A stretch of 49,034 bases of DNA from contig CALDMA010000085.1 of assembly GCA_937915075.1 (NCBI GenBank), positions 1-49,034 on the forward strand, given 5' to 3'. Under the pieces are notes generated by a model that saw only the letters and a list, made by a program, of their open reading frames with translations, made no database searches and had not been told where the DNA came from. Of the stretch, positions 12,733-48,161 are shown piece by piece (the first letter of the stretch is position 1; each line of letters begins with the position of its first letter). The position numbers and the translations under genes are program-made. This DNA comes from an uncultured Oscillospiraceae bacterium. Its GTDB lineage: Bacteria > Bacillota > Clostridia > Oscillospirales > Oscillospiraceae.

Positions 12733-12733
12733 G

Positions 12734-12767
12734 AAAAGAAGGTCTCTTTTCAAGAGGCCTTCTTTTT
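12734..12767. terminator. Bidirectional terminator
   Basis: aaaagaaggtctctt-ttc-aagaggccttctttt between convergent genes. Confidence 0.8.
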
Positions 12768-12777
12768 AGTTCCGTTT

Positions 12778-30507: not shown

Positions 30508-31542
30508 ATGCGCTCCATTCCCGCTCGAATCAAAAGCTACGCGCCGGGCTTCGCGCTCGCGCTCATCATCGCGCTGCTCGCCAAGGGCATCGAGGCCCTG
30601 CTGCCGTTCGACGTCATCGGCGCGTCCGTCATCGCCATGTTCATCGGTATGCTCATCAACGGTTATCGTAAGCCAGGCAAGACCACCGCGCCCGGCGTGA
30701 AGTTCACGGCGAAGAAGATCCTGAAATTCGCCATCATCCTTCTCGGAGCGAGCCTGAACGTCACGACCATCCTGAACGTCGGCAGAATGTCGCTCACTGT
30801 CATGCTCTTTACGCTCCTTACCTGCTTCGGCGGCGGCTATTTCATCGGCCGCGCGCTGGGGCTGGACTGGAAGCTCTCGAACCTCATCTCCGCGGGCACC
30901 GGCATCTGCGGCGGCAGCGCCATCGCGGCGGTCGCGCCCGTCATCGACGCCAAGGACAGCGACATCGCCTACGCCCTCTCCGCGACCTTCCTCTTTGATA
31001 TGGCGATGATCGTGCTCTTCCCCATCATGGGCCGCGCGATGGGCCTTTCCGACATGGCCTACGGCCTGTGGGCAGGCACGGCGGTCAACGACACCTCCAG
31101 CGTCGTCGCCGCGGGCTATGCCTTCAGCGAGGGCGCAGGCGACTTCGCCACCATGGTCAAGCTCACGCGCACGCTCGCCATCATCCCGACGGTGGTGGTG
31201 TTCTCGTTTGTGAGTATGCACCTGAAGAAAAAGGAAGCCGTCGCATCCGGCAGCGCGGTGCAGATCAGGTGGAAGAGCGTCTTCCCGTGGTTCATCCTCG
31301 GCTTTCTCGCCATGGCGGTGCTCAGCAGCGCGGGCGTGATCCCCGCGGCAGCCGCGGCGGCGCTCAAGAAGGTCAGCAAGTTCCTCATGGTCACGGCGCT
31401 CGCCGCCGTGGGATTGAACACGAGCTTCGCCGAAATGAAAAAGTCCGGCGCGGCCCCGATGGTGCACGGCTTCCTGATCTCCGCGCTCGTCGTCATCGTG
31501 GCGCTGGCCGTGGAGTATTTCATGGGCATCCTGCCGTTCTGA
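30508..31542 (+). CDS. YeiH-family putative sulfate exporter membrane protein
   Basis: GTGICGGSAIAA, GLWAGTAVNDTSSV, VKLTR, FPWFILGF. Confidence 0.9.
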   Translation: MRSIPARIKSYAPGFALALIIALLAKGIEALLPFDVIGASVIAMFIGMLINGYRKPGKTTAPGVKFTAKKILKFAIILLGASLNVTTILNVGRMSLTVMLFTLLTCFGGGYFIGRALGLDWKLSNLISAGTGICGGSAIAAVAPVIDAKDSDIAYALSATFLFDMAMIVLFPIMGRAMGLSDMAYGLWAGTAVNDTSSVVAAGYAFSEGAGDFATMVKLTRTLAIIPTVVVFSFVSMHLKKKEAVASGSAVQIRWKSVFPWFILGFLAMAVLSSAGVIPAAAAAALKKVSKFLMVTALAAVGLNTSFAEMKKSGAAPMVHGFLISALVVIVALAVEYFMGILPF

Positions 31543-31545
31543 AAA

Positions 31546-31554
31546 TGTTATGAT
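31546..31554 (+). promoter_or_regulatory. Extended -10 promoter for the riboswitch leader
   Basis: TGt-TATGAT, placing the transcription start near 31561, at the start of the aptamer. Confidence 0.55.
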
Positions 31555-31560
31555 TGTATC

Positions 31561-31668
31561 AAAGCAGCACCGGGAAACCGGAACTGGGGAAATGTGGGTG
31601 AAAAGCCCCGCGAGCGGGTCACTGTGAAGCTTCCTTGAGGAGATAAGTCAGAATGCCCAAGCTGCTTG
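31561..31668 (+). ncRNA. Cobalamin (B12) riboswitch aptamer, compact type
   Basis: Closing stem aagcagc/gctgctt; GGGAA core; gggTGAAAAgccc T-loop stem; cACTGTga; B12-box-like AAGTCAGAATGCCC; lies upstream of DUF4430/ECF genes. Confidence 0.85.
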
Positions 31669-31726
31669 AGATAGCTCCTGCCCGAACCGGGGGCCGTCAG
31701 ACCGGGGGATCATTGCGCCCTTTTTT

Positions 31727-31771
31727 GCGTCTGCACGGCCCGTGTGAGCGGGCAGGTGCAGACGCTTTTTT
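31727..31771 (+). terminator. Riboswitch expression-platform terminator
   Basis: gcgtctgcac-g-gcccg/cgggc-ag-gtgcagacgc plus T6, upstream of the start codon; cctgcccg (31677-31684) can pair with cgggcagg (31749-31756) as an antiterminator. Confidence 0.85.
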
Positions 31772-31794
31772 CAGCGAAGGAAAGGAGAAAACAG

Positions 31795-34700
31795 ATGAAA
31801 AAGCGCATATTGTCCCTGCTGATGAGCTTTGTAATGCTCGTCAGCCTGCTGCCTGCCTCGGTCCGGGCGGCGGAAACTGTGACAGAGATCAGCTCTGCCG
31901 AAGCGTTTGCCCAAATGGATACGTCCGGCAGCTATAAGCTGACACAGGACATCACCATCACAAAGCCATACACCGGCAAATTCGGCGGCACCTTTGACGG
32001 CGACGGCCATACCGTCACCCTCAAGCTGAACGTCAGCAGCGGCAACGCCGGACTTTTTGCCACTACCGGTCAAGGTGCCGTGATCAAAAACGTTGAAGTT
32101 GCCGCCGATGTGACATCCAGCGTTGCCTCTACCAGTTACGGCACTGCCGGGCTGGTGGGCGTTGCCAGTTATCCGCTGACAATAGAAAACTGCGGTGTGA
32201 CCGGCACTGTAGCCAACACCGCTACATCTACTTCTTCCGCCGTCTATATCGGCGGTCTGGTAGGTTATCTGCAGGACAGTCTCACTCTGAAAAACTGTTA
32301 CAGCAGCGCCAACATCACCAGCAGCAGTACGCAGTATAACTCTGTTGCGGGCGGCCTGATCGGTAAAATGAGCTCCGCCTATTCCGTCACCGCCGAAAAC
32401 TGCTACTTCTCCGGCAATGTAACTGCCAAAAATTATGCCGGTGGTTTCATCGGCTACTTGAACAGCAGCGCCAGCAAATCCCACGCCTACACCAACTGCT
32501 ACACTTCCGGCACGGTAACCGGTTCTTCCGGTAAAGCATACTCCTTTGCTTATATTTACAAGCCTTCTTATGGCAGTGCACCCCAATACACCTTTGATAA
32601 CTGCTATTTCAATAACGTAAATACGGTCGGTGGCTGCAATCTGGATTCTACCGGCCTCACCGCCAAAACCTCCGACGATCTGAAAGCCCTTGCCGACACC
32701 CTCGGCAACGGCTTCCGGGCCGACCTCGCCGAGTCCATCAACGGCGGCTACCCCATCCTCTCCTGGCAGTATATTGACCCCAACGCCGCCTACACCATCT
32801 CCTTCACCGTGGAGCCGAAGGGCTCCGTCCTCACCTGGAACGGCACGGAGCAGGCCGTTTCCGAGAGCGGCAGTTACACCTTTAAAAATGTGGCCGTTGG
32901 CTCGTATTCCTATTCTGTTTCCAACGAAGCGGGCGACTACGCCGCCAAGTCCGGCGCCGTCGCGGTCAAAAACAAAAACGTGACTGTCCCTGTCACGCTC
33001 TCCCTGAATCCGCACAAGCTCACCTTTACCCTCACCCCCGCCAACGCGGAGCTGACCGTCAAAAAGGGCGGTGAAGAGCTGCGCTCCAACTCGGACGGCA
33101 GCTACACCGTCACCAAGGGCGAGTATACCTACTCAGCCTCCGCCTTCGGCTATGAGACAAAGTCCGGCAAAGTCACCGTCCCCGCCGAAGATCATACGGA
33201 GAAGGTGGAGCTGACCGCCCAGCCCACGAACACCGTCAACTTCACCGGCATTGCCGATGATGCAAAGGGCGTTTCCCTCACCGTCACCACCGGCAGCCGC
33301 ACCATGACCCACGAGGAGGATAATCACTACACTTACAAGCTCCCCGCCGGTTATACCTACGATTGGACGTTCAAGTGCGCCAACTATGCAAAGCAAACCG
33401 GCAGTCTCAACCTTACCGACCTGACGGAGAATAAAACGGAATCCGTTGCCATTTCCATGGCCGAAAAGACCGCATGGGAAGGCGCGGACGACATCACGGA
33501 GCCTTCGCAGGTGGACGGCGTTTACCAGATCACCTCCGGCAGCGAGCTGGCCTGGCTGGCAAAGGAAGTCAATGCGGGCCGCGGCGCGTCCTACAACGCA
33601 GTCCTCTGCAATGACATCGACCTGGGCAGCGAAAATTGGACGCCGATCGGAAAAACTTCCAGTACTGCTTATAAGGGCACCTTCGACGGGCAGTATCACG
33701 AGATCAAGAACCTGAAGATCACCGGTTCCAACAGCAACCACTATGGTCTTTTCGGCGTAGTGGGCACCGGCACCGTGAAAAATCTCACCGTTTCCGGTGA
33801 AATCACGATTTCCGGCAGCGGTTCTTCCACCTATGGCATCGCCTCCATTGCCGGTTCTCTCAACAATACCGGTACCATTGAAAATTGCATCAACAAAGCC
33901 ACCGTCTCCGGCAACTACAACACCGCGGGCATTGTTGGCTACATGAGCAGCAGCAATGGCACTGTCACTTCCTGCGCCAATACCGGCAACATCTCCGGCA
34001 ATAACAGTGCCGGCGGTATCGTCGGCCAGCTGAACGGCAAGGGCACCGTTGACCACTGCTATAACACCGGCGACATTACCGCCGCTGTCAGCAAGGCGGG
34101 CGGCGGCGTCGGCTATCTGTACGCATCCTCCTCTTATTATAAGAATACGGTATCCGCCTGCTATTCCACCGGCAAAGTCACCGGCACCAACAGCGCCGCT
34201 GTGGTCGGCAGCGTTTACAGCGCAAGCTATTCCACGCTGGATAAGCTCTTCTTCCTGGAAGGTGCCGCCACCGACTCCAACGCCACGGCCAAAACCTCCG
34301 GCGAGCTGAAGAATCTGGCCCCCACGCTGGGCGCACCGTTCATCGCCACCCCGGCGGGCATCAATGACGGCTACCCCATCTTCGAGTGGCAGATCCCCAC
34401 CTACGCCGTCACCTTCACCGTTGACCCGGTGGAGGCTGAAGTCGCCATTGCGGGCCGTACCGGCACACACAACGGAAATACCTGGACCTTCACCCTCCCC
34501 GACGGCTCCTATAACTACACCGTCACCGCTTTCGGCTATGGGGCAACATCCGGCAAGGTCACCGTCAACGGCGGCGAGGTCAGCAAAACCGTCAACCTGA
34601 CCGCAGTGGAAAAGCGCACGGTCACCTTTAACATTTCCCCAGCGGACGCCGCCGTCACCGTCCTCTGGAAGGGGCAGACCATCAGCCCGGAAGCCGACGG

Positions 34701-37700
34701 CAGCTATCTGCTCCCGGACGGTGAATACACCTACACGGTCAAGGCCAGGGGCTACGCCAAGGTAAACGGCAACCTCAATGTCACCAAGGACGAAACCGTT
34801 TCCGTCACCCTGACCCCCTCCGCCGCGTGGGACGGCACGGCCAAGACCCAGCCCTCCGGTGACGGCACACAGGCTTCCCCCTATGAGATCGCGGACGGCG
34901 AGCAGCTGGCATGGCTGGCCGACAAGGTCAACAACGCATCCACCGTTTCCGCCATCTATGCCGTCCTCACCGACGACATCGATCTGGGCAACTATGCCTT
35001 TACCCCCATCGGCAAGGACTTCCACGAATTCACCGGCAGCTTCGACGGAAAGGGCCATACCGTTTCCGGGCTGAAGGTCTCCGACGTTGAGGACGCCGGC
35101 CTCTTCGGCGTGGCAAAAGCCGCCACGATCAAAAACGTCATCGTTCAGGGCACCGTCAGCGGCACAAGCAACGCCGCCGGTATTTTGGCTAAAGCTAAAA
35201 CTACAGCCTGCACCATTGTAAATTGCGGTAATGAGGCTGTGGTGAATGTACCCAAGAGCGGCGGTGGATACGCAGGCGGCATTCTGGGATATGCTATTAC
35301 CAGTACAACAGTCACAAACTGCTATAACAGTGGCGCTGTGACTTCTAAGGGCAACACTTCTTACAGCCGCGCAAGTGGTATCGTGGGATATTCGAGTGGC
35401 AACGGATCTGCAAAGATCACTACTTGCTATAACACAGGAAAAGTAACCTCGGACGGCTATGCAGCAGGTGTGTTCGCAGGGACAACAGCCACTATTTCCG
35501 AGTGCTACACCACCGGTACCATTGCGGGCGAAAGCAGCGCAAAAACCGGCGCATTTACGACCAGCAGCAGTGACAGCCGTACCGACTGCTACTATCTGAC
35601 CGGAAGCATCACGGGAGGCGGAAAAACCAACGGCGCCGAAGCCCTCACCCTCGCCGCCATGCAGTCCGGTCTGCTGGACAAGCTGGGCGAAGCAAGCTGG
35701 AAGAGCGTCCGCGGCGTGAACCGCAACCTGCCTGTTCTCCAGTGGCAGGATACCACCGCCTCCATTCAGGATGTGACTCTCGTCCCCGCCGCTTTCTCCC
35801 GCATTCCCTTTACCACGGAGGACGGCGAGCTGTCCTCTCTCCCCACCGGCCTTCTCAAGTGGACCGCGCAGGACGGCGCGCAGAGCTACACCGTCTCCCT
35901 GTGGGAAGCGGTGAAGACCTGGGTGCTCCTCTCCGACGAGGAAAAGGCAGAATATAAAGCCGCCCAGACCGCGGAGGAAAAGCTGTGGATGATCGACGAC
36001 GCCAAGATCGTGGAGCATCTGACTTCCGAGCAGCTCACCCGCCTTACTCAGCTGAACGCCGCCATTTCGGAAGCGCATGATGCTCTGGACAACGCCGGAG
36101 CTACTGACGCGGCCACGGAAGCCCAGCTCCGCAAGGCCCTCAGTGATGCCTATGAGGCCCGCGCCGTCTTCCTCATCGACCTTGCCACGGACGATGATCT
36201 GGGCTATTACGATCTGGTCCTGAAGTGGCGCCGCGATATTCCCGGCATTACAGCCACAGAATATGACTTTGCTTCCGACTTTGCCGCCCTGCCCGAAGGC
36301 ATTTACTACGCCTCCGTGGCCGTGGAGGAAAACGGTGAGCTGACCTGTGCCCCCCTCCGGCAGGTAGCGGAAGAGGTCACCACCGTTCAGAACCCCTATA
36401 ACCGCATGAAGGCGGTCACGAACGTCCGCTGGGACGGCTCCGCCGCCAAGTGGGACGGCCGTGAAAACTTCACCGGCACCTATCAGATCGACCTCTACAC
36501 GGTGGAGGGCAGCGACTACACGCTCTTCAAGACCTTCCAGATCAGCGGGCAGTACACCTCTGCCAACTTCGCGAACGTCTTCGCCGCGGAGAAAAAGTAC
36601 GCCTTCACCGTCACCGCCCTTGCGGACACCGCCATCGATCAGGAGCTGGGGCTGACCGACAGTATCCCCTCCGCCTACAGCGATGTGTATGACCCCTCCA
36701 CCGGAACCGGCGAAACCAAGGAATGGGTGGATATCACCTCTGCCGAAGACTGGATCGTGCTTGCCAATGTGAAGGACGAGCCTTCCGACGGCACCGGTTC
36801 CCCCAGCAAGCAGGCGGTGGAATGGAGCAAAAACTACCGTCTTGCCAACGATATTGACTTCTCCACGCTCTCCGCCGCCGACCAGACAAAGACCAAGTCC
36901 ATCGGCACCGTCACCTATCCCTTCATGGGCGAATTTGACGGACAGGGGCACAAGATCACCGGCCTCACCCTCAGCAACAGCGACTCCGGTCTCTTCTGGT
37001 ACACCGGCGCCACCGCGTATGTCCATGATCTGACCATCGACAGCGCTAACGTCCTCTTCTCCGACAATGCCGCCGTTCTGGTCCACAACAACTACGGCCG
37101 CCTTGAAAAGTGCGCCGTGGTGAACACCAACATCACCGCCGATACCGGCGCGGTGCTGGGCGGCATGGTCAGCCGGAACTACGGCGTTATCCGCGACAGC
37201 TTCGTGCAGGGCGGCACCCTCACCTCCAACACCACCACCTCCGTGGGCCACGCGGGCTTCGTGGGTTCCAATGAGGAAGGCGGCCTCATCGAGCGCTGCT
37301 GGACCAGCATGAACGTCTCCACCCAGAGCGCCCATGCCGGCGGCTTTGTTGGCCTTGGCTACGGCGGCACCATCCGCAACTGCTTTGCCCTGGGCAATGT
37401 TTCCGCCCGCACGCATTCCGGCGGTTTCGTAGGGCGCTCCGTCTATCTGGGCAACGTCTATGAAAACTGCTACGCGGTCGGCGTTGTCACCGTCACCGAG
37501 AAAGAGGGCAACGGCTTCATCGGCGGCAACCAGGACTGGTCTTCCTTCCAGTATGACCAGTCCGACGGCATCACGAACTGCTACTACAACAGCGCCACCG
37601 CCTCCAGCCACGACTATAACGCCATCCGCAAGGCGCTGGACGAAATGAAGGCGGCCGACTTCCTCACCGCCCTCTCCGGCAGTGAGTCCGGCGTCTGGAC

Positions 37701-40700
37701 GCAGGACCGTGAGCACAACAACGGCCTTCCCTATCTGGACGGCGTTCAGGCCCCCGAAACGGCCCAGACCACGAAGATCACCGTTCAGATCGCCATTGCC
37801 ACTTATAATAAGGGCACTTATTCCTTCGAGAAGTCCGGTGACATCATCTCCGTCACCATGGATTCCAACGGCAACACCCGTCTGGTGGACCTGATGGACG
37901 CGGCGCAGGAGCAGAAACTGCTGACCTATTCCTACTCCACCACCTCCACCTTCGGCCGCTTCATCCACACCATCAACGGCAGGGAAGTGAACGAGCCGGA
38001 CGGCTGGATGTTCACCGTCAACGACAAGCTCTCCAACGTCAGCGCCTCGCTGGCCACGGTGAAGGACGGCGACAAGGTCCTCTGGTTCGAAGGCACCACC
38101 GAGAACCACTTCCAGGGTCCCAGCTGGGATTCCCTCTCCGGCGAGAGCATCCAGTGGGAGACCATTTCCACCGTGGACGACCTCCTCGCTCTGGCCCGCG
38201 CCGCGGACGCGGCGACGCTGGGCAAAAACTACAAGCTGGCAAATGCTCTGGACCTCGCCGGCGTCAACTTCCCCGGCATCGGCACAACGGACCATCCCTT
38301 CACCGGCCGCTTTGACGGGCAGAACAAAACTATTTCCAACGTCACCGTCACCGGAGAAAATAACGTCGGCTTCTTCGGCGTCATCAAGGGCGTCACGATC
38401 CAGAACCTGAACCTTGTAAATGTGAAAATCTCCGGCAAGGAAAAGGTCGGCGGTCTGGTGGGCTATTCGCAGGTAACGCTGGACCCGAGCGACCTTTCCA
38501 AGAACACGGCAAACCTCATCGGCGGCTGCGCCGTTTCCGGTACGGTCAGCGGCGAAACGCGGACCGGCGGTCTCGTGGGTCTCAATGAGGGCAAGGCCGA
38601 TGCCGACACCCTCTTCTCCATCGCCAGTTCCATCGACAAGTGCTCCTCCTCCGCTGCTGTCACCGGCAAAGAAAGCACCGGCGGCCTGATAGGCGAAAAC
38701 GGCGGCGCCGTCACCAAGAGCACGGCCATCGGCTCCGTTACCGGCACCAACTCCACCGGCGGCTTCGCAGGCAGCAGCAGCGGCGACATTTACGATAGCC
38801 ACGCGGAAGGCGCCGTCACCGGCAGCAGCCACACCGGCGGCTTTGCGGGCAGCAGCACCGGTACGGTGAAGAACTGCTATAGCCTCGGCGCGGTCACCGG
38901 CACCGACTACACCGGCTCCTTCGCCGGTTCCCTCGCCGCGGCGGACACCGTCATCGGTGCGGGACAGGTCACCATCACCGGCATCCCCACGCAGGGCTAT
39001 AACGGCGGTCTTGCCGGTACCCTCAGCGGCACGGTTTCCGGCCTTGTCAACCGCATCACCGTGAAAAACGCCTTCGGCAACTGCACCCAGCCGGAGGGCG
39101 AAAACCTCTCCGTCGTCGGCAATACCAACGATTACCAGACGGACAGCCAGAAGGCCGCGCTGGAGGGCATGACTCTCTCCACCCGTCAGAAAGTGGGCGA
39201 TACGCTCTACGCGCTGTTCGGCATCAACCTCCCCGCTCTGGAAAACGAGGCCGCCAAGTATGTGGATTCCCTCACCGTCCCCGCCTCCACGGCAGCCGGT
39301 TCCGCCCTCAGCCTTCTGAAACCGGGCGAAACCGCTGCGCCGGGCATCACCGTCACCTATGCGGTCACCGACGCGCACCTCACCGGCGGCAGCACCTTGA
39401 CACTGGTAAAGCCCAATGACACCTGCGCCACGGTATCCATCCAAGTGGATCTTCTTCTGACGGATGGCGAGGGAAATACATACCGCAAGAGCGTACAGGT
39501 TCTTCTTCCGGTGGCGCCCGAAAAGCGTACCGAACTCATGGACGCCATTGCATCCGGCTATACGGATACCAAGGATGCGTGGACGGCCATGGATATGGCG
39601 GTTTACTCCGCGCTGCCCGGCAAGACCGCAAAGCTTACCGATGCGGCAAAGCAGAATATTTTGAATCTGCTCATCAAAGAGGCAAACAGCAGCGAGGTTA
39701 CACTCTCCGCTCATTCCCGCATTGAGATCGTCCTGCGCTCCCTGGGCATCGACAGCAGAAAGCTCTATCCGGTCAACAGCAATGCTGCTGTGGATAACGC
39801 TGCGAAGCTGACCCAAATGGCAGCGCAGGCCGACCAGTACGCTGCACCCTATGTCCTTCTGGCGGATCTTCAAGGCAATGTTGGTCTGACATCTGAGCAG
39901 GTCAATGCCCTGATCGGCGTTCTGAAGGCCAACATGGGCACAGGGCTTTTCAGCTACGAATGGAATGGCGTCACCTACGCCAGTCCGGACACCGCTGGTG
40001 CTGCCTTGGCCGCTCTTGCAAAGTATTACGGCGCCAACGCGGATGCGAAAGAAGTGGTGGATACCATTCTCGCCGCGCTTCCCTCCGCCATGGATGCAAA
40101 CGGCTCCTTCAGCAGCGCAAACTCCGACGCCATGGTCATGATCGGCCTACTGGCTCTGGGCAAAGATCCCGCGTCCCTGACCTCCGTCTCCGGCGCCAGT
40201 GTAGTGGACGGAATGCTGTCCTACGTCAATACCGGGACAAATCAGTTCCGCTACTCCGGCGAGGATAACGCGCTGGCCACCGAACAGGCGTTCCGCGCAT
40301 TGGCGGCATTGGCGCATTTTGAAGAGGGCAAAGCGTTCAATGTATACGATTTCAGCGCCAATCCGGTCGAGCCGGGCCGTGCGACCGGCAGCGGCGAGGC
40401 TGAAACACCCAAGCCGCCGGCCGGCACGGAGATCACCGTCCGCATGACGATCAAGGCGGACAGCGGTTACTGGTTCAACGGCTCCGTCACCATTCCGGGC
40501 GAGGGTGCAACGGTCTATCACGCGCTTATTAAGGCGCTTGACGAGGCCGGTATGTCCCAGGTCGGCGCGGAAAGCGGTTACGTTCGCTCCATCAGCAAGG
40601 ACGGGAAAACGCTGAGTGAATTTGACAATGGCGAAAACTCCGGCTGGCTTTACAAGGTGAATGGCGATTTGCCGGATGTCGGCCTGACGAGTTATGCGAT

Positions 40701-42867
40701 CAAAGACGGTGACCGCATCGTGTGGTACTACACCAACGACTGGACGCTTGACCCCGATGCCGGTAAGTGGTATGTCAAGCCGGTCGGCTCTACGATCACG
40801 CCTGTCACTGCCATCAAAGACGGCACAGCAAGCGCGTCCGTTTCCTACAAGGACTTGAGTGAGGCGCTCAACGCGGTGAAGAAGTCCGGCGAGGACACCG
40901 TGACCATCACGCCGGAGATCAAGGGCAAGGTGAACAGCATCGCCGTCTCTCTGCCGAAGTCTGCCGCGGCGAACGCGGCGAAGCAGGGCGTGCAGCTCGT
41001 TATCGAAACCGATAAGGCGCACGTCAGCCTGCGCGCCGAGTTACTTGGTGAATTGGCGAAGAACAGCGGCTCTGAGCTGAAGCTTGAGATCACGGAGAAA
41101 AAGGCCGAAGAGGTTTCGGACAGGCTCGCTCATGAGAAGCTTGACGGCGCCTCCATCGTTGAGGTCACGCTGGTGATCGGCGGCAAACCGGTCACGACCT
41201 TCGGCGGCAAGAAGCTGCTGATCGACATTCCCGTGGACAGCAAGCGATTCCGCGCGGGCGATGCCTGCCGTGTCCTTATCCTCAGCGACGACGGTACGAT
41301 GGAGCACATAAGCGGCCAATGCATAAAGAAAAACGATGCGCTCTTTGTCCGCGTGGAAGCAACGCACCTGAGTACCTTTGTCGTTATGCGCGATGCGGCG
41401 CTGCCGTTCACCGATGCAGCGGATACCGCGTGGTACGCGGACGCGGTGCAATACGCCTATGAAAGGGGCCTTATGACCGGCGTTTCCGAGAGCGAGTTTG
41501 CGCCGGACGGCACGGCGACGCGCGGCCAGATCGTCACCATCCTCTGGCGTCTCGCGGGCAGCCCCGTAGTCAACTATGCCATGCGCTACGCCGATGTGGA
41601 CGAGGGCGCGTGGTACGGCGAGGCCGTGCGCTGGGCAGCCTCCACCGGCGTCGTCACCGGCTATAGCGAGAGCAGCTTCGGCCCGAGCGACGCCATCACG
41701 CGCGAGCAGCTCGCCACGATCCTCTACCGCTATGTCAAGGCGCAGGGGCAGGGCTTTGCCGGTATGTGGTACTTCCCGCTGCGCTACGACGATGCGGCCA
41801 GCATCAGCGATTGGGCGGACGAGGCCATGCACTGGTGCGTGATGAAGGGCATCATCAACGGCACGAGTGAGACGACGCTCAGCCCTCGGGCTACGGCGAC
41901 GCGCGCGCAGTTGGCGGCCATTCTCCAGCGCTTCTGCGAGCTGCCCAAGGATACCGCAGGCAAGAGCGCCGCGCAGACCGCCTATGACCGCGCGTCAGCC
42001 TACCTGACCGCTGCCGTGAGCGCGCCGCGCTATGGCAGTCTCGGCGGCGAGTGGACGGTGCTCGCCCTCGCCCGCGGCGGCGCGGACACGGGAACCGCTT
42101 ATTTCACCGACTATTTCGCCGCGCTCGAGCAGACCGTCCGCGAAGCAAACGGCGTGCTGAGCGAACGCAAGTACACCGAGTACAGCCGCGTCATTCTCGC
42201 GCTCTCCGCGCTCGGAAAGGACGCACGGGACGTCGCGGGCTATGACCTGACGCTCCCGCTTGGCGACTACGAAAAGACGACGGCGCAGGGCGTGAACGGC
42301 GCGATCTACGCGCTCCTCGCGCTCGACAGCCGCGATTATCCCATGCCGCAGAACACGGCGGCGGACACGCAGGCGACGCGGCAGCTGTATGTGGACGCCA
42401 TCCTTGCCGCCCAGCTTGCAGACGGCGGCTGGAGCTTCATGGGCGAGGCCGCCGATCCTGACCTGACCGCTATGGCCTTACAGGCGCTGGCGAAGTATCG
42501 GGAACAGAGCAGCGTCCAACTGGCAGCCAACCGCGCGCTCGTTTGCCTGAGCGCTATGCAGAACGCAGACGGCGGCTTCTCCTCCTGGGGGAGTGAGAAT
42601 GCCGAGAGCTGCGCGCAGGTGCTCCTTGCGCTCAACGCGCTGGGTCTCGGTGCGGACGACAGCCGCTTCGTAAAGAACGGTCACAGCGCGCTCGACGCGC
42701 TGCTGACCTATCAGACCACGGACGGCGGCTTCTGCCACGAGCGCGGTGGGGAAACGAATCTCATGGCAAGCGAGCAGGCGGCCTGCGCCCTCGCGTCGCT
42801 CATCCGCGCGGAGCGCGGCGAGAGCGGTCTCTACCGGATGGCGGCGCTGACGCAGCCCGCCGCCTGA
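31795..42867 (+). CDS. Giant (3690 aa) secreted SLH-anchored protein: 5 GLUG-type modules, Ig/PEGA-like linkers, 2 DUF4430 domains, 2 alpha/alpha-barrel domains; putative cobalamin-scavenging surface protein
   Basis: Signal peptide MKKRILSLL...VRA; repeated Y.L..DI...F.G.FDG.GH...GGLVG modules; GWMFTVN and GWLYKVNG DUF4430 motifs; three SLH repeats (TRGQ/TREQ/TRAQ) at 41401-41940; QxxDGGW/F helical repeats; AAGGAG RBS. Confidence 0.85.
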   Translation: MKKRILSLLMSFVMLVSLLPASVRAAETVTEISSAEAFAQMDTSGSYKLTQDITITKPYTGKFGGTFDGDGHTVTLKLNVSSGNAGLFATTGQGAVIKNVEVAADVTSSVASTSYGTAGLVGVASYPLTIENCGVTGTVANTATSTSSAVYIGGLVGYLQDSLTLKNCYSSANITSSSTQYNSVAGGLIGKMSSAYSVTAENCYFSGNVTAKNYAGGFIGYLNSSASKSHAYTNCYTSGTVTGSSGKAYSFAYIYKPSYGSAPQYTFDNCYFNNVNTVGGCNLDSTGLTAKTSDDLKALADTLGNGFRADLAESINGGYPILSWQYIDPNAAYTISFTVEPKGSVLTWNGTEQAVSESGSYTFKNVAVGSYSYSVSNEAGDYAAKSGAVAVKNKNVTVPVTLSLNPHKLTFTLTPANAELTVKKGGEELRSNSDGSYTVTKGEYTYSASAFGYETKSGKVTVPAEDHTEKVELTAQPTNTVNFTGIADDAKGVSLTVTTGSRTMTHEEDNHYTYKLPAGYTYDWTFKCANYAKQTGSLNLTDLTENKTESVAISMAEKTAWEGADDITEPSQVDGVYQITSGSELAWLAKEVNAGRGASYNAVLCNDIDLGSENWTPIGKTSSTAYKGTFDGQYHEIKNLKITGSNSNHYGLFGVVGTGTVKNLTVSGEITISGSGSSTYGIASIAGSLNNTGTIENCINKATVSGNYNTAGIVGYMSSSNGTVTSCANTGNISGNNSAGGIVGQLNGKGTVDHCYNTGDITAAVSKAGGGVGYLYASSSYYKNTVSACYSTGKVTGTNSAAVVGSVYSASYSTLDKLFFLEGAATDSNATAKTSGELKNLAPTLGAPFIATPAGINDGYPIFEWQIPTYAVTFTVDPVEAEVAIAGRTGTHNGNTWTFTLPDGSYNYTVTAFGYGATSGKVTVNGGEVSKTVNLTAVEKRTVTFNISPADAAVTVLWKGQTISPEADGSYLLPDGEYTYTVKARGYAKVNGNLNVTKDETVSVTLTPSAAWDGTAKTQPSGDGTQASPYEIADGEQLAWLADKVNNASTVSAIYAVLTDDIDLGNYAFTPIGKDFHEFTGSFDGKGHTVSGLKVSDVEDAGLFGVAKAATIKNVIVQGTVSGTSNAAGILAKAKTTACTIVNCGNEAVVNVPKSGGGYAGGILGYAITSTTVTNCYNSGAVTSKGNTSYSRASGIVGYSSGNGSAKITTCYNTGKVTSDGYAAGVFAGTTATISECYTTGTIAGESSAKTGAFTTSSSDSRTDCYYLTGSITGGGKTNGAEALTLAAMQSGLLDKLGEASWKSVRGVNRNLPVLQWQDTTASIQDVTLVPAAFSRIPFTTEDGELSSLPTGLLKWTAQDGAQSYTVSLWEAVKTWVLLSDEEKAEYKAAQTAEEKLWMIDDAKIVEHLTSEQLTRLTQLNAAISEAHDALDNAGATDAATEAQLRKALSDAYEARAVFLIDLATDDDLGYYDLVLKWRRDIPGITATEYDFASDFAALPEGIYYASVAVEENGELTCAPLRQVAEEVTTVQNPYNRMKAVTNVRWDGSAAKWDGRENFTGTYQIDLYTVEGSDYTLFKTFQISGQYTSANFANVFAAEKKYAFTVTALADTAIDQELGLTDSIPSAYSDVYDPSTGTGETKEWVDITSAEDWIVLANVKDEPSDGTGSPSKQAVEWSKNYRLANDIDFSTLSAADQTKTKSIGTVTYPFMGEFDGQGHKITGLTLSNSDSGLFWYTGATAYVHDLTIDSANVLFSDNAAVLVHNNYGRLEKCAVVNTNITADTGAVLGGMVSRNYGVIRDSFVQGGTLTSNTTTSVGHAGFVGSNEEGGLIERCWTSMNVSTQSAHAGGFVGLGYGGTIRNCFALGNVSARTHSGGFVGRSVYLGNVYENCYAVGVVTVTEKEGNGFIGGNQDWSSFQYDQSDGITNCYYNSATASSHDYNAIRKALDEMKAADFLTALSGSESGVWTQDREHNNGLPYLDGVQAPETAQTTKITVQIAIATYNKGTYSFEKSGDIISVTMDSNGNTRLVDLMDAAQEQKLLTYSYSTTSTFGRFIHTINGREVNEPDGWMFTVNDKLSNVSASLATVKDGDKVLWFEGTTENHFQGPSWDSLSGESIQWETISTVDDLLALARAADAATLGKNYKLANALDLAGVNFPGIGTTDHPFTGRFDGQNKTISNVTVTGENNVGFFGVIKGVTIQNLNLVNVKISGKEKVGGLVGYSQVTLDPSDLSKNTANLIGGCAVSGTVSGETRTGGLVGLNEGKADADTLFSIASSIDKCSSSAAVTGKESTGGLIGENGGAVTKSTAIGSVTGTNSTGGFAGSSSGDIYDSHAEGAVTGSSHTGGFAGSSTGTVKNCYSLGAVTGTDYTGSFAGSLAAADTVIGAGQVTITGIPTQGYNGGLAGTLSGTVSGLVNRITVKNAFGNCTQPEGENLSVVGNTNDYQTDSQKAALEGMTLSTRQKVGDTLYALFGINLPALENEAAKYVDSLTVPASTAAGSALSLLKPGETAAPGITVTYAVTDAHLTGGSTLTLVKPNDTCATVSIQVDLLLTDGEGNTYRKSVQVLLPVAPEKRTELMDAIASGYTDTKDAWTAMDMAVYSALPGKTAKLTDAAKQNILNLLIKEANSSEVTLSAHSRIEIVLRSLGIDSRKLYPVNSNAAVDNAAKLTQMAAQADQYAAPYVLLADLQGNVGLTSEQVNALIGVLKANMGTGLFSYEWNGVTYASPDTAGAALAALAKYYGANADAKEVVDTILAALPSAMDANGSFSSANSDAMVMIGLLALGKDPASLTSVSGASVVDGMLSYVNTGTNQFRYSGEDNALATEQAFRALAALAHFEEGKAFNVYDFSANPVEPGRATGSGEAETPKPPAGTEITVRMTIKADSGYWFNGSVTIPGEGATVYHALIKALDEAGMSQVGAESGYVRSISKDGKTLSEFDNGENSGWLYKVNGDLPDVGLTSYAIKDGDRIVWYYTNDWTLDPDAGKWYVKPVGSTITPVTAIKDGTASASVSYKDLSEALNAVKKSGEDTVTITPEIKGKVNSIAVSLPKSAAANAAKQGVQLVIETDKAHVSLRAELLGELAKNSGSELKLEITEKKAEEVSDRLAHEKLDGASIVEVTLVIGGKPVTTFGGKKLLIDIPVDSKRFRAGDACRVLILSDDGTMEHISGQCIKKNDALFVRVEATHLSTFVVMRDAALPFTDAADTAWYADAVQYAYERGLMTGVSESEFAPDGTATRGQIVTILWRLAGSPVVNYAMRYADVDEGAWYGEAVRWAASTGVVTGYSESSFGPSDAITREQLATILYRYVKAQGQGFAGMWYFPLRYDDAASISDWADEAMHWCVMKGIINGTSETTLSPRATATRAQLAAILQRFCELPKDTAGKSAAQTAYDRASAYLTAAVSAPRYGSLGGEWTVLALARGGADTGTAYFTDYFAALEQTVREANGVLSERKYTEYSRVILALSALGKDARDVAGYDLTLPLGDYEKTTAQGVNGAIYALLALDSRDYPMPQNTAADTQATRQLYVDAILAAQLADGGWSFMGEAADPDLTAMALQALAKYREQSSVQLAANRALVCLSAMQNADGGFSSWGSENAESCAQVLLALNALGLGADDSRFVKNGHSALDALLTYQTTDGGFCHERGGETNLMASEQAACALASLIRAERGESGLYRMAALTQPAA

Positions 42868-42905
42868 TGGCATCGCAATACCGAAACGAAAGAAGGAAGA
42901 CGGAC

Positions 42906-43643
42906 ATGAAAACAGCCAAGCGTTTTCACGCGGCGCTGCTGGCATTTGCACTGATATTCGCGCTCGCGGCCTGCGGCACACCGGCAGTAGAGCCGACGCC
43001 GACACCTGCGCCGACGCAGAGTGAAGCGTCCGCGCCCGATGCGGCGCAGGATACGCCCGACACGTCCGCTCCCTCCGAAACTGAGCGACAGGAGGAAGCG
43101 CCGCCGGTCGGAGAACAGCAGCCGGTGGAAAGCGGCGCGCCGGAGGGAAACGCCGCCGACACATTGCCGACAGGCGACAGCTCCGACGCACAGGACAGCT
43201 CCTCCAACAAGCCCGATGCATCACCGGAGAGCACCGTGCCGACGTGTACGGTCTCCATCTCATGCGCGGCGATTTTGGAAAATCTCGACCGGTTTGACGC
43301 GGAGAAGACCGACCTCGTCCCCGCGGACGGCGTTCTGCTGGCTCCGACTGCGGTGGAATTTGCCGAGGGTGAGAGCGTGTTTGACGTGCTCAAGCGGGTG
43401 TGCCGCGAGAACAAAATACACATGGAGTTCTCCGAAACGCCGGTCTATCAGTCCGCCTACATCGAGGGCATCGGCAACCTTTACGAGTTCGACTGCGGCG
43501 AGGGCTCGGGCTGGATGTACCGCGTGAACGGTGAATTCCCCAACTACGGCTGTTCACGCTATGTCCTCGCGGACGGCGACACCGTCGAGTGGGTCTACAC
43601 CTGCGACTTCGGCGCGGATGTCGGCGGGAGGGTCGGCGCATGA
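42906..43643 (+). CDS. DUF4430 (transcobalamin-like beta domain) lipoprotein
   Basis: Lipobox LAAC, long low-complexity linker, SVFDVL...YIEGIGNLYEFDCGEGSGWMYRVNG...DGDTVEWVYT. Confidence 0.9.
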   Translation: MKTAKRFHAALLAFALIFALAACGTPAVEPTPTPAPTQSEASAPDAAQDTPDTSAPSETERQEEAPPVGEQQPVESGAPEGNAADTLPTGDSSDAQDSSSNKPDASPESTVPTCTVSISCAAILENLDRFDAEKTDLVPADGVLLAPTAVEFAEGESVFDVLKRVCRENKIHMEFSETPVYQSAYIEGIGNLYEFDCGEGSGWMYRVNGEFPNYGCSRYVLADGDTVEWVYTCDFGADVGGRVGA

Positions 43644-44527
43644 AGCATCACGCCTTTCTCACCTGCCATCCGACGGTAAATCTACTCTATTTCGTGCTGG
43701 TACTGACGTTCTCCATGTTTTTCCTGCACCCGCTCTGCCTTGCCGTCTCGCTCTGCGCTGCGCTCCGGTGTGCCGCGCAGTTAAACGGCGGCGCGGCGGT
43801 GCGCCGCACCGCGCTCTGGCTCGCGCCGTCGGCGCTGCTCGCCGCGCTGGTGAACCTTGCCTTCAATCACGAGGGCGCGACCATTCTGGCCTATCTCCCC
43901 TCGGGCAACCCCCTGACGTTGGAGTCCATCGCCTACGGCTTCGCCGCCGCGGCGATGCTCGCCGCCGTCGTGCTATGGTTTTCCTGCTGGAACACGGTCA
44001 TGACCTCGGACAAGCTCATGCACCTTTTCGGGCGCGTCGTGCCCGCCCTCTCGCTCCTGCTTTCCATGACGCTGCGCTTTGTGCCCCGCTTTCAGGCAAA
44101 GCTCCGCGAGGTAACGGCGGCGCGCCGCGGCATAGGGCTGTACGCGGAAAAGGGCCGGCTCCAAAAGCTCAGGAGCGCCGTGGCGGTCTTTTCCGTTATG
44201 GTGACATGGAGCTTAGAGAACGCCGTGGAGACGGCGGACAGCATGAAAAGCCGCGGCTACGGCCTGCCGGGCCGCACAGCCTTTTCCCTTTACCGCTTCA
44301 GCCGCCGCGACAGGCTGCTGCTTTTGTGGCTGACGCTCTGCGGCGCTTACGTCGCCGCAGGCTGGGCGCTCGGCGGCGTGAAGTGGCGCTACTATCCCAC
44401 GGCGCGCGGCGCGCTGACGCCGTATTCCGCGAGCGTGCTGTTCGCGTATTTTCTGCTCTGCCTGACGCCGGTGCTGCTGCAGAGAAGGGAGGAGCGCACA
44501 TGGAGCTCTATCGCATCGAAAACCTGA
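43640..44527 (+). CDS. ECF transporter transmembrane T component
   Basis: HP motif, LRFVP, ARRG, ADSMKSRGYG; ATGA overlap with the lipoprotein gene. Confidence 0.92.
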   Translation: MKHHAFLTCHPTVNLLYFVLVLTFSMFFLHPLCLAVSLCAALRCAAQLNGGAAVRRTALWLAPSALLAALVNLAFNHEGATILAYLPSGNPLTLESIAYGFAAAAMLAAVVLWFSCWNTVMTSDKLMHLFGRVVPALSLLLSMTLRFVPRFQAKLREVTAARRGIGLYAEKGRLQKLRSAVAVFSVMVTWSLENAVETADSMKSRGYGLPGRTAFSLYRFSRRDRLLLLWLTLCGAYVAAGWALGGVKWRYYPTARGALTPYSASVLFAYFLLCLTPVLLQRREERTWSSIASKT

Positions 44528-46878
44528 CGTTTACCTATCCCGGGCAGTCCGCGCCCGCCCTGCGGGACGTGAGCCTGACGCTCCGCGCGGGCGAGTTTGT
44601 CACGCTCTGCGGGCTTTCCGGCAGCGGCAAATCCACCCTCCTCCGCCAGCTCAAGACCGCGCTTGCGCCCAACGGCGACCGTTCGGGCGCGGTCCTTTTC
44701 GCCGGCCGCCCGCTCTCCGACGTTTCGCCGCGCGAGCAGGCGGAGCGTATCGGCTTTGTGCAGCAAAGCCCGGAAAACCAAATTGTCACTGACAAGGTCT
44801 GGCACGAGCTGGCCTTTGGACTGGAGAGCCTCGGGTACGATACGCCGACCATCCGCCGCCGCGTCGTCGAGATGGCGGGCTTTTTCGGCATGGAGAGCTG
44901 GTTCCACCGTGAGGCGGCGTCGCTCTCCGGCGGACAGAAGCAGCTTCTGAACCTTGCCGCCGTGCTGACGTTGCAGCCGGACGTGCTGATTCTGGACGAG
45001 CCGACCGCACAGCTCGACCCCATTGCGGCGGCGGATTTTCTCGCCGCGCTCGCGCGGGTCAACCGCGAGCTGGGCACGACGGTGCTGCTCTCCGAGCAGC
45101 GCTTGGAGGATGCGCTGCCGCTCTCCGACCGCGCCATCGTGCTCGACGGCGGGGCGGTCCTTGCGGACGGCACGCCGCGCGCCGTGGGCGCGCAGCTGCG
45201 CACGGTGGGACATGAGTTGTTCCGCGCCATGCCCGCCGCCATGCGTGTGTGGGCGGCGGTAGAGAACGATTTTCCCTGTCCTGTCTCCGTGCGCGAGGGG
45301 CGGGACTGGCTCGCGGACTTTGTCGCCTCGCACCCCCTCAAGAGCGTGCCGGAGCGCCCGCTGCCCGCGCCCTCGCAGGAAACGGTCGTGACCGTCTCGG
45401 ACGCATGGTTCCGCTATGCGTCCGACGCGCCGGATGTGCTGCGCGGGCTGGAGCTGACGGTGCGGCGGGGCGAGCTTTTCGCCATCCTCGGCGGCAACGG
45501 CGCGGGCAAGTCCACCACGCTCCGGCTGCTCGCGGGCCTGCAAAAGCCCTACCGCGGAGAGATCTGCGTCACCGGAAAAGCGGCGCTCCTGCCGCAGGAG
45601 GTGCAGGCGCTCTTTGCCAAAAAAACCGTGCGCGAGGATCTCGCCGAGGTCACCTCCGACGCGGCGATGCTCGCCTGCGTCACCGCGCTCTGCCATCTGG
45701 GCACGCTGCTGGACCGTCACCCCTACGACCTCTCCGGCGGCGAGCAGCAGCGCGCGGCGCTGGCCAAGATTTTGCTCACGCGGCCCGATATCCTGCTCCT
45801 CGACGAGCCGACGCGCGGACTGGACGCTGCCTTCAAGGCGGAGCTGGCCGAGCTTCTGCAAAACCTGCTCACGCAGGGTGTGACCGTTGTCCTGGTCAGC
45901 CACGACGTCGAGTTCTGCGCCGCCTACGCGCAGCGCTGCGCACTTTTTTTCGACGGTGCCATCGCTGCCGACGGTGCGCCGCGGGAGTTCTTCGCCCGCA
46001 ACCGCTTCTACACCACGGCAGCGAACCGCATGGCGCGCGACCGGCTGCCCGAGGCCGTGACAGCGGAGGACATCATTGCCGCCTGCGGCGGCAGGGAAGC
46101 GCCAAAAAAAGAGCGGCAAGAGCCCCCACCGCAGCCGCCGAAGGCGGCGCCGGATACGCCCACCGCACCGCCGGAAATGCGGAGGCTTTCCCCACGCACG
46201 ACCGTCTCCTCCCTGATCGCTCTTCTGCTCATCCCCCTGACGCTGCTGTTTGGTCCGAAGCTGCTCGGCGACCGGAGCTACTACGCCGTTTCACTCCTGA
46301 TGGTGCTCGAGGCCATGCTGCCGTTCTTCCTTGCCTTTGAGGGACGCAGGCCCCGCGCGCGGGAGCTGGTCGTGACCGCAGTGCTCTGCGCGCTCGGCGT
46401 GGCGGGCCGCGCGGCCTTCTTCATGCTGCCGCAGTGCAAGCCCGTACTGGCGCTGACTATCCTCGCGGGCGCGGCGCTCGACGGGGAGACGGGCTTCCTC
46501 GTGGGCGCGGTGACGATGCTGGTCTCCAACATTCTCTTTTCACAGGGTCCGTGGACACCGTGGCAGATGCTCGGCATGGGACTGTGCGGCTTTTTCGCGG
46601 GGCCGGTGTTCCACAGGGGCGGTCTGCCGAAGAAGCGGGAGACGCTTTGCGCCTACGGCGCGGCGAGCGCATTTGCCGTTTACGGCATCCTGCTCAACGC
46701 CTACTCCGCGCTGCTCGCCACGGGCGCGCTGACGTGGCAGAGCCTTGCGGTCTACTGTGCCTCCGGCTTTGCGATGGACGCGGTGCAGGCCGTCTCCACG
46801 GTGATTTTCCTCTGGTTCTTCGCCGAGCCGATGCTCGATAAGCTCGAGCGCGTCAAGCGCAAATACGGCTTTGCGTGA
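44500..46878 (+). CDS. Fused ECF ATPase-ATPase-S component (CbrT-like, probably cobalamin)
   Basis: Two NBDs (GLSGSGKST/LSGGQ/LDEP and GGNGAGKST/LSGGE/LDEP), Pro-rich linker, then a multi-TM S domain with KPV...GFLVG...SN...QGPWTPWQM. Confidence 0.88.
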   Translation: MELYRIENLTFTYPGQSAPALRDVSLTLRAGEFVTLCGLSGSGKSTLLRQLKTALAPNGDRSGAVLFAGRPLSDVSPREQAERIGFVQQSPENQIVTDKVWHELAFGLESLGYDTPTIRRRVVEMAGFFGMESWFHREAASLSGGQKQLLNLAAVLTLQPDVLILDEPTAQLDPIAAADFLAALARVNRELGTTVLLSEQRLEDALPLSDRAIVLDGGAVLADGTPRAVGAQLRTVGHELFRAMPAAMRVWAAVENDFPCPVSVREGRDWLADFVASHPLKSVPERPLPAPSQETVVTVSDAWFRYASDAPDVLRGLELTVRRGELFAILGGNGAGKSTTLRLLAGLQKPYRGEICVTGKAALLPQEVQALFAKKTVREDLAEVTSDAAMLACVTALCHLGTLLDRHPYDLSGGEQQRAALAKILLTRPDILLLDEPTRGLDAAFKAELAELLQNLLTQGVTVVLVSHDVEFCAAYAQRCALFFDGAIAADGAPREFFARNRFYTTAANRMARDRLPEAVTAEDIIAACGGREAPKKERQEPPPQPPKAAPDTPTAPPEMRRLSPRTTVSSLIALLLIPLTLLFGPKLLGDRSYYAVSLLMVLEAMLPFFLAFEGRRPRARELVVTAVLCALGVAGRAAFFMLPQCKPVLALTILAGAALDGETGFLVGAVTMLVSNILFSQGPWTPWQMLGMGLCGFFAGPVFHRGGLPKKRETLCAYGAASAFAVYGILLNAYSALLATGALTWQSLAVYCASGFAMDAVQAVSTVIFLWFFAEPMLDKLERVKRKYGFA

Positions 46879-46982: not shown

Positions 46983-47234
46983 AACCACCAGTAAACTGGT
47001 GGTTTGACCTGCCCCTAAAAGGGGCTATTACCGGCATAGCCCCTATAAGGGGCACCGAATTATATTATCGCATCACACGCACTGCCACCCGTAAACGGGT
47101 ACGGGCAAAGCCTATTCTTTCAACGTCTCTTTCTCGCTCAAATGTTTACTCTCAAGTATTTGCTTTCCTTCGGAAAGCCTCATGCTAAAGCTATTTTTCT
47201 TCCCCCGGTAGAACCGGGGGTTTATTTCCACGCC
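46983..47234 (-). mobile_element. Internally deleted IS200/IS605-family remnant (PATE/MITE-like), no transposase
   Basis: Hairpins aaccaccagt-aa-actggtggtt, two gcccct..aggggc, acccgtaaacgggt and cccccggtagaaccggggg; minus strand keeps ttgaaagaa...ccgtttacgggt, resembling the LKE...PFTG end of clostridial IS200 TnpA. Confidence 0.65.
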
Positions 47235-48102: not shown

Positions 48103-48108
48103 AATCTC

Positions 48109-48133
48109 AGGGCAGGGATTCCCCTGCCCTTTT
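48109..48133 (+). terminator. Terminator after the HTH gene
   Basis: agggcaggg-attc-ccctgccct-ttt. Confidence 0.7.
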
Positions 48134-48161
48134 ATATCCCATAGAATGTGAAGTGAACGCT

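Follow-up and report, generated by a model that had tools for sequence, protein, structure and literature searches.

An operon predicted to capture and import corrinoids, headed by a compact cobalamin-type leader RNA, in an uncultured Oscillospiraceae bacterium

Scavenging of vitamin B12 by secreted, transcobalamin-like SLBB proteins was predicted by Burroughs et al. in 2007, on the basis of operons that also encode CbiO and CbiQ (PMC1796856). In the BtuG/BtuH/BtuJ-BtuB relay of Bacteroides thetaiotaomicron, riboswitch-regulated surface binders pass cobamides to a transporter (PMC13616437), and a 2026 review describes extracellular capture in Gram-positive Firmicutes as 'entirely uncharacterized' (PMC13616437). 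Import is represented by ECF-CbrT of Lactobacillus delbrueckii (6FNP), an energy-coupling factor (ECF) transporter with a CbrT-type S component that transports cobalamin and cobinamide (PMC5997447). Described here is an operon at positions 31546-46878 of a 49,034-nt stretch of DNA from an uncultured Oscillospiraceae bacterium (GCA_937915075.1, contig CALDMA010000085.1), which as a whole is referred to as the window. The operon probably serves to capture and import corrinoids, the vitamin B12 family, and is probably switched off by B12.

The surface protein of this operon contains a unit made of an alpha/alpha toroid and a beta (SLBB/DUF4430) domain, an architecture shared with animal transcobalamin, intrinsic factor and haptocorrin. 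The earlier prediction also covers multidomain SLBB proteins, in many cases with a toroid and accompanied by a second paralogue (PMC1796856). The Lsa1836-1840 operon of Lactobacillus sakei likewise combines an S component, fused A-A' ATPases, a T component, and beta-like and alpha-like proteins (10.1101/864751), and a binder split into alpha and beta halves was proposed there for Lsa1840 and Lsa1839.

The operon and its proteins

A leader (31546-31794) is followed by four genes on the + strand, successive ones overlapping or abutting. The first, from an ATG at 31795 to a stop at 42867, encodes a protein of 3690 residues with S-layer homology (SLH) repeats, referred to as the giant. A gene for a 245-residue DUF4430 lipoprotein (42906-43643) comes next; a second possible ATG, at 42867, overlaps the stop of the giant. 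The start of the ECF-T gene (43640-44527, 295 residues) overlaps the lipoprotein stop, and the gene for a fused A-A'-S protein (44500-46878, 792 residues) overlaps the T gene by 28 nt. Open reading frames and Pfam confirm these four tightly spaced genes, which had been described in an original prediction for this DNA. Its further statement that no terminator lies between them agrees with a terminator-pattern scan of both strands (21 sites, compared with 15.6 +/- 3.6 in shuffles), which gave no strong + strand site in the operon interior; the best + strand site, at 47202-47220, is 3' of the last gene.

The transcobalamin-like unit of the giant (39472-40764, residues 2560-2990) comprises the toroid tor1 and a DUF4430 domain, DUF4430 b (40504-40734). 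An AlphaFold2 model of these residues, based on a 28-row alignment, has a pLDDT of 91.9. When it was compared with the PDB by Foldseek, ranks 1-15 were taken by transcobalamin, haptocorrin and intrinsic factor, with E values from 7e-11 to 1.4e-8 over ~440 columns, so that the transcobalamin-like fold expected for the giant was recovered. The isolated transcobalamin beta domain matches the model at a TM score of 0.71. Over whole chains the TM score is ~0.4 with a large rmsd; therefore, the two domains are placed differently from those in the ligand-bound crystal forms. A phmmer search of the PDB with the same residues gave no useful match. The search for homologues of the unit found 45, many of them stand-alone toroid+DUF4430+SLH proteins of 600-750 residues, and the unit is 64% identical to the best of these and carries invariant Y, W and G positions.

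A second alpha/alpha toroid, tor2, forms the C-terminus of the giant (41992-42864, residues 3400-3690). It is 31% identical to tor1 (E 5e-12), and its AlphaFold2 model has a pLDDT of 92.6. The giant carries a signal peptide (residues 1-25, read from the sequence) and three SLH repeats (41392-41964; Pfam SLH 116 bits, 3 stretches), the combination that marks an SLH-anchored surface protein, with the repeats as the predicted cell-wall anchor. In addition to the three SLH stretches, Pfam reports two DUF4430 domains and a Prenyltrans/SQHop-type toroid. A comparison of the giant with itself by BLASTP gave no off-diagonal repeat at E<1e-4, and its modules were therefore delimited by Pfam on segments.

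The lipoprotein begins with a lipobox, LAAC, and a low-complexity linker of ~110 residues, which lead to a DUF4430 beta domain (75 bits, Pfam). A genome scan for DUF4430 (PF14478) returned three domains, at 78, 61.9 and 55.3 bits with a cut-off of 23.8. In a 19-sequence alignment of the lipoprotein domain (A4; window 43203-43640), C15, C21 and C134 are invariant and C117 is near-invariant; the two DUF4430 domains of the giant have no cysteine. In BtuM, cobalt is known to have a cysteine ligand (PMC6072759). A phmmer search of the PDB with the lipoprotein gave a single chance match (E 0.47). A predicted complex between tor2 (alignment A3) and the beta domain of the lipoprotein (A4) scored 0.01 against a mark of 0.32, and was not used either way.

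The last two genes encode the transporter. The T protein matches CbiQ at 31.8 bits (cut-off 25), and the A-A'-S protein has two ABC_tran stretches and an S domain that matches ECF-ribofla_trS at 32.8 bits (cut-off 26.7). Its ATPase halves score 303 bits for ECF_ATPase_1 and 296 bits for ECF_ATPase_2, slightly below the equivalog cut-offs of 315 and 330. With T, two ATPases and S encoded together, the transporter is of the dedicated group I type. The S domain (~46300-46875) has a single match in the PDB at E<=10, the chain 6fnp_A, at E 8.2e-8 over residues 8-178, which is nearly full length. By homology the S domain is a CbrT homologue and a predicted cobalamin S component, and the CbrT-type importer anticipated for this operon was in this way borne out by the sole relative of its S domain in the PDB.

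The first two genes of the operon encode four extracellular units built from two transcobalamin folds: a complete alpha plus beta unit, a lone beta domain and a lone alpha toroid in the giant, and a lone beta domain on a long tether in the lipoprotein. These folds are anchored at two depths, in the wall by the SLH repeats and in the membrane by a lipid tail. Under the proposed mechanism, low cellular B12 would let an antiterminator form in the leader and the operon be transcribed. Held off the wall by GLUG and Ig modules, the distal transcobalamin-like unit would bind the corrinoid, and the wall-proximal tor2 and the tethered lipoprotein domain may close round the ligand like the halves of transcobalamin, to give a split transcobalamin. 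An alpha/beta pair brought together by its ligand is reasonable, given that fragments of intrinsic factor reassemble around cobalamin. The split pair would then hand the ligand to the S domain, and hydrolysis of ATP by the fused A-A' would result in its import; the order of hand-over, from wall to lipoprotein to S, is conjectural. Once B12 accumulates in the cytoplasm it would bind the aptamer, and docking of the platform hairpin would allow the terminator to form.

The remainder of the giant is built of other modules. Four GLUG/Peptidase_M26_N-like modules were delimited between 31870 and 37854 (residues 26-342, 561-902, 1131-1560 and 1561-2020), with CarboxypepD_reg/PEGA Ig-like pairs between them (residues 343-560 and 903-1130). 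The Atlas clusters that match the GLUG region carry Glug or Peptidase_M26_N, and the GLUG modules may act as a stalk or adhesion module; they might also help to extract B12 from carrier proteins or neighbouring cells. They are followed by the lone DUF4430 domain of transcobalamin beta type, DUF4430 a (37855-38244; Pfam 54.9 bits, residues ~2029-2097, 37879-38085 in the genome scan), and by a fifth GLUG module (38245-39474; Glug 38.9 bits, 3 stretches). Between the transcobalamin-like unit and the SLH repeats lies a domain of ~210 residues without a Pfam family (40762-41394), which matches only unnamed Bacillota clusters in the Atlas; homologous stretches precede SLH in relatives. In total, domains of the corrinoid-binder type make up ~1,050 of the 3690 residues, the rest being GLUG and Ig-like modules, the domain without a family, and SLH. 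The description of the giant as a multi-domain scavenger finds support in the domains of the corrinoid-binder type and not in most of its length.

The leader RNA and its switch

The original prediction placed a B12-type riboswitch with a terminator ahead of the operon. Such an RNA, of a compact form, is found at 31549-31691 on the + strand. Covariance model R1 was built from 32 elements of other genomes, with the window leader and its three nearest relatives left out, and the window leader scores 87.2 bits on it (E ~8e-25) over 31549-31691. A search of the host genome (G000, 82% complete, in 388 contigs) with R1 showed the leader to be a single copy. AAGCAGC (31562-31568) and GCUGCUU (31661-31667) form the outer helix, the core contains GGUGAAAAGCCC, GCGAGCGGGUCACUGUGAAGC and AAGUCAGAAUGCC, and a conserved platform hairpin at ~31677-31697, with the loop UGCCCGAACC, lies 3' of the core.

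Covariation supports this structure. RNAalifold gave 21 pairs for 29 sequences, 12 of them with compensatory changes. In an alignment of 35 sequences to the model, pairing holds in 97.3% of cells, and 9/16 pairs are changed on both sides. The covariation score of that alignment, which was fitted to the model and so is somewhat favoured towards a high score, is 0.505, as compared with 0.139 +/- 0.015 in shuffles (0/500 reach it) and <=0.10 with slid partners. Covariation of the outer helix is also visible by eye, with AAGCAGC/GCUGCUU in the window, GCCGUC/GACGGC in genome G265 and GGUACG/CGUACC in G133, and the operon leaders of G114, G133 and G054 can be aligned to that of the window. Of 401 genomes from the family, 116 have a 22-nt core motif, with <=2 mismatches allowed; ~150 sites are among the matches listed, as compared with 6 for a reversed control.

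The leader falls below the gathering thresholds of RF00174, RF01482 and RF01689, the cobalamin riboswitches of Rfam clan CL00101. A permissive search left one trace of the clan, a match to RF01482 at 31594-31651 (16.1 bits, E=3, threshold 50), and this partial alignment to positions 32-89 of the family retains the hairpin and the CUG/CAG helix. Another member of the compact RNA reaches 29.6 bits on RF00174, for which the gathering score is 31.5. The compact RNA shares with the clan the GGUGnAAnnCC hairpin, the CACUGU...AGUCAG pairing, a B12-box-like 3' part and B12-related gene contexts; it differs in its length of ~105 nt, in the lack of a peripheral extension and in having GUCACUG for the usual GCCACUG. 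Compact class-II cobalamin riboswitches without a peripheral extension have been described earlier, and the leader RNA may be one of them.

The genes that follow the compact RNA suggest what it senses. In two members of the same genus, G102 and G328, it precedes genes for CbiK, a BtuF-type binding protein, an ABC-CbiD fusion, a CbiG fusion and CbiJ. Among 21 proteins encoded downstream of the RNA, there are 8 with DUF4430, 7 with SLH, 3 with GLUG, 2 with Flg_new, 1 CobT and 1 with DUF4465, which is a B12-binding fold (PMC13398666); two look unrelated (AP_endonuc_2 and integrase, possibly wrong calls of open reading frames), and two are without a family. In many genomes, large GLUG/DUF4430/SLH proteins lie directly behind it. 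On sequence and covariation, the leader is a real compact cobalamin-type RNA that Rfam thresholds miss, and because of its gene contexts it probably senses cobalamin. The expectation of a B12-type leader is upheld, in the form of a compact variant, by the R1 score, the covariation and the cbi and btuF contexts. Since Rfam thresholds miss the compact RNA, B12 regulation would be undercounted in this family.

Several arrangements of these RNAs in relatives can be recorded separately. The operons of G102 (contig C35) and G328 (C28) include a 1040-residue open reading frame in which an ABC ATPase, a small Cys-rich domain and CbiD are fused. G343 (C1) has two compact copies 1.3 kb apart, at ~1443-1582 and 2767-2906, with a gene after each; the gene after the first encodes a DUF4430+SLH protein, and G138 has a like pairing. 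In G058 (C43), an RF00174 riboswitch on the - strand (12704-12957) stands back to back with a compact one on the + strand (13133-13273). One of the two drives a toroid/DUF4430/SLH gene and the other a tor2-lipoprotein-ECF operon, in opposite directions.

The terminator that had been noted in the leader was also recovered (31727-31771, + strand). Its hairpin, 31727-31765, folds at -32.6 kcal/mol (z -6.15, equalled by 0/200 shuffles), with U6 on its 3' side. For the strand GCUCCUGCCCG (31674-31684) there are two alternatives, the platform hairpin with loop UGCCCGAACC and pairing with CGGGCAGGUGC (31749-31759). The latter pairing gives a long hairpin of -52.3 kcal/mol that excludes the terminator. 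Pairing of GCUCCUGCCCG with CGGGCAGGUGC could plausibly be the antiterminator of a terminator/antiterminator switch.

Relatives, B12 use and competing explanations

The conserved linkage expected of the operon was checked by synteny in the operons of 19 relatives. Alongside A-A-S, all 19 have T, 18/19 the DUF4430 lipoprotein and 15/19 a tor2 homologue. Identity of the tor2 homologues is 54-66% for 14 of them and 43% for the fifteenth, and the lipoprotein gene adjoins every time. The tor2 homologue is usually a separate toroid+SLH protein of ~520-600 residues, and often, not always, a separate GLUG/DUF4430/SLH protein of 1300-3200 residues is encoded upstream. The conserved core of the operon is made up of toroid+SLH, lipoprotein, T and A-A-S. 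Because relatives encode its halves as separate proteins, the giant is read as a fusion, specific to its lineage, in which the conserved SLH-toroid protein is joined to a surface protein of the riboswitch-led kind. In G114, from another genus, tor1, DUF4430, SLH and tor2 follow one another in a single 1349-residue protein behind the compact riboswitch.

The closest genome, G265, has an S domain that is 90% identical. Compared with its syntenic locus (C3), window positions 31543-41425, that is, the leader and ~3200 N-terminal residues of the giant, are absent there. A different contig of G265 encodes a riboswitch-led GLUG/toroid/DUF4430/SLH protein of 1649 residues. Metagenome contigs from runs of two studies join 31542 to 41426 (X1 side 30, X5 side 87, minimum likeness 90), which is a weak hint of the same short form in related organisms. 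Read mapping yielded only fragments of 90-99% identity, from relatives, and the low cover over 31534-40000 was not counted as evidence. None of the sequencing runs listed is of RNA, and five DNA runs contain only 6-7% of the sampled words.

Of 201 genomes sampled from the family, 97 encode the S domain, usually within an open frame of 800-1200 residues, which makes the A-A'-S fusion the common form there. An RF00174 search of 80 S-bearing genomes gave a match in 57. Among the 150 of 188 matches listed, at least 24 of the 80 genomes have one that shares contig and strand with the S domain and precedes it by 3-13 kb; three further cases, with the riboswitch divergent, downstream or 28 kb off, are left out of this count. 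Among the 19 fetched operons, 6 have an upstream RF00174 element and 4 the compact form; no riboswitch was found in the DNA covered for 9/19, several of these loci ending at contig ends. The B12-binding domain PF02310 is present in 171/201 genomes of the family sample and in at least 77 of the 97 S-bearing ones, so the system normally occurs in B12 users and the lineage of the window is exceptional. A search for PF02286 (diol dehydratase) was uninformative, as it had no match in any control genome. A sub-threshold NrdJ-like match in G265 was rejected, given that the ribonucleotide reductase of G265 is class I.

A number of results weigh against capture and import of corrinoids. An Rfam cobalamin match, proposed as a check of the leader, failed: no family, the cobalamin ones included, matches at gathering score in the whole 49-kb window, and the RF01482 trace is all that remains. 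In the host genome, RF00174 gives nothing at E<=0.001, RF01689 nothing at E<=10, and RF01482 nothing beyond the 16-bit leader trace. In the syntenic locus of G265, 63 nt separate a 344-residue Cons_hypoth698 gene from the downstream gene for a 517-residue SLH-tor2 protein, with no leader. The best Foldseek matches of tor2 are beta subunits of prenyltransferases and class II terpene cyclases (E ~1e-5), and transcobalamin is at rank 22 (TM 0.62); with these toroids nearest, the fold alone is no proof of a B12 binder. Searches for B12 use covered a few families of B12-dependent enzymes. The host genome has no PF02310, NrdJ, QueG, EutB, CobA/BtuR, PduO-type adenosyltransferase, CbiC or CobS, and the two operon-bearing congeners G265 and G381, each with a 98% complete genome, have no PF02310, NrdJ above cut-off, QueG, EutB or CobA/BtuR. 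Finally, the homologous L. sakei operon, which has the same parts, was linked to heme uptake (10.1101/864751).

The last two points would also suit import of heme or another non-corrin tetrapyrrole, as proposed for Lsa1836-1840, but that function is improbable for the operon in the window, given that the leader is a cobalamin-type RNA that also heads cobalamin biosynthesis in congeners, that orthologous operons have canonical RF00174 riboswitches and that the sole solved relative of the S domain is CbrT; the authors of the L. sakei work themselves base the case for its extracellular pair on docking (10.1101/864751). The lack of all tested B12-dependent families in three operon-bearing genomes could instead mean that corrinoid is captured for a purpose other than as a cofactor, such as withholding it from competitors, a surface reservoir, or an unrecognised B12-dependent enzyme. 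Surface reservoirs of B12 formed by BtuJ1 have been described in Bacteroides (10.1101/2025.07.01.662609), and three congeners without the operon (G102, G196 and G328) have a MetH-like protein of ~800 residues and no S domain of the operon type, with riboswitch-led cobalamin-biosynthesis genes in two of them. Such a purpose is unlikely: B12-binding domains are found in most S-bearing genomes, as counted above, only a handful of enzyme families was tested in a genome that is 82% complete, and import is to be expected of an intact ECF importer behind a riboswitch that senses a cytoplasmic ligand. It is likewise rather doubtful that the compact RNA is a distinct, uncatalogued riboswitch subclass and also drives, in lineages like that of the window, a very large wall-anchored corrinoid trap for competition, storage or an unknown B12-dependent process in place of the usual supply of cofactor.

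Two further explanations concern the giant. Its GLUG, Ig-like and family-less domains take up ~70% of its length, its 3200 N-terminal residues are missing from the operon of the closest relative, and the contigs from two studies skip the same part, such that it might be mainly an adhesin or S-layer-associated protein with B12-type modules as passengers of domain shuffling, uptake being left to tor2, the lipoprotein and the ECF transporter. The probability of this is small, since large GLUG/DUF4430/SLH proteins stand directly behind the same riboswitch in many genomes and the transcobalamin-like unit is well conserved, in its identity to homologues and its invariant residues. The 3690-residue frame could also be an assembly chimera of two loci joined via similar SLH repeats, a possibility raised by the 388 contigs of the genome and by the location of the two parts on different contigs in G265. 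A chimera predicts one junction, but the window has two, between the 344-residue gene and the leader and between SLH and tor2; because of this, and because G114 independently shows the fused order in one protein behind the same riboswitch, a chimera is very improbable. The frame also stays open for 11 kb. Capture and import of corrinoids, switched off by B12, remains the probable function of the operon.

Several features of the surrounding DNA can be added. Upstream of the operon, G265 has open reading frames of identical lengths in the same order (344, 408, 390, 294 and 292 residues). The 294-residue protein (26506-27387) belongs to the TP_methylase family and is sized like that family's rRNA methyltransferase; it offers no evidence of corrin synthesis. 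Right after the operon, at 47584-48527, lie an excisionase-type HTH_17 gene and a gene for a RepA_N replication initiator, which suggests that a mobile element begins there, and synteny with G265 stops at these genes. A 2246-residue open frame on the - strand (33133-39873), antisense to the giant gene, was ascribed to the repeats and high GC content of the coding strand of the giant.

Comparison with described systems

The finding makes extracellular B12 capture by gut bacteria of the Gram-positive type testable with defined and well-modelled pieces: a transcobalamin-like unit of 430 residues, an alpha/beta pair split over two proteins, an ECF importer in one chain and an RNA of 140 nt. It also bears on the economics of B12 in the gut through a contrast within one genus. 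G102 and G328 have riboswitch-led biosynthesis genes and MetH but no importer, whereas G000, G265 and G381 have the importer, no biosynthesis genes that were found and no visible B12-dependent enzyme.

The likeness to Isd-type NEAT heme relays is conceptual only, and Pfam finds no NEAT domain in the operon proteins. A match to the NCBIfam model inl_like_NEAT_1 was rejected, as it reaches 40 bits against a cut-off of 1275 and covers the SLH region only. The B. thetaiotaomicron relay is unrelated in its folds and in its envelope. The Lsa1836-1840 operon was assigned to heme, and neither a riboswitch, an SLH anchor nor a giant appears in the passages of that source covered here (10.1101/864751). 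In the literature, no work was found that combines a cobalamin riboswitch with S-layer homology, or that deals with DUF4430 in such a system.

The animal binders are 12-16% identical in sequence to the unit of the giant, and Pfam finds no eukaryotic cobalamin-binder family in it. Here, the unit is embedded in a wall-anchored giant, and the operon also splits alpha (tor2) from beta (lipoprotein). As compared with ECF-CbrT, the operon encodes A, A' and S in one 792-residue chain with a dedicated T, and adds four extracellular transcobalamin-type domains. The general idea of such a capture system was printed in 2007 (PMC1796856), in a purely computational study that mentions neither riboswitches nor the S-layer. 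What is new is the scale and fused form of the surface protein and its presence or absence between close relatives, together with a compact form of riboswitch that falls below Rfam thresholds in this family and the lack of visible B12-dependent enzymes.

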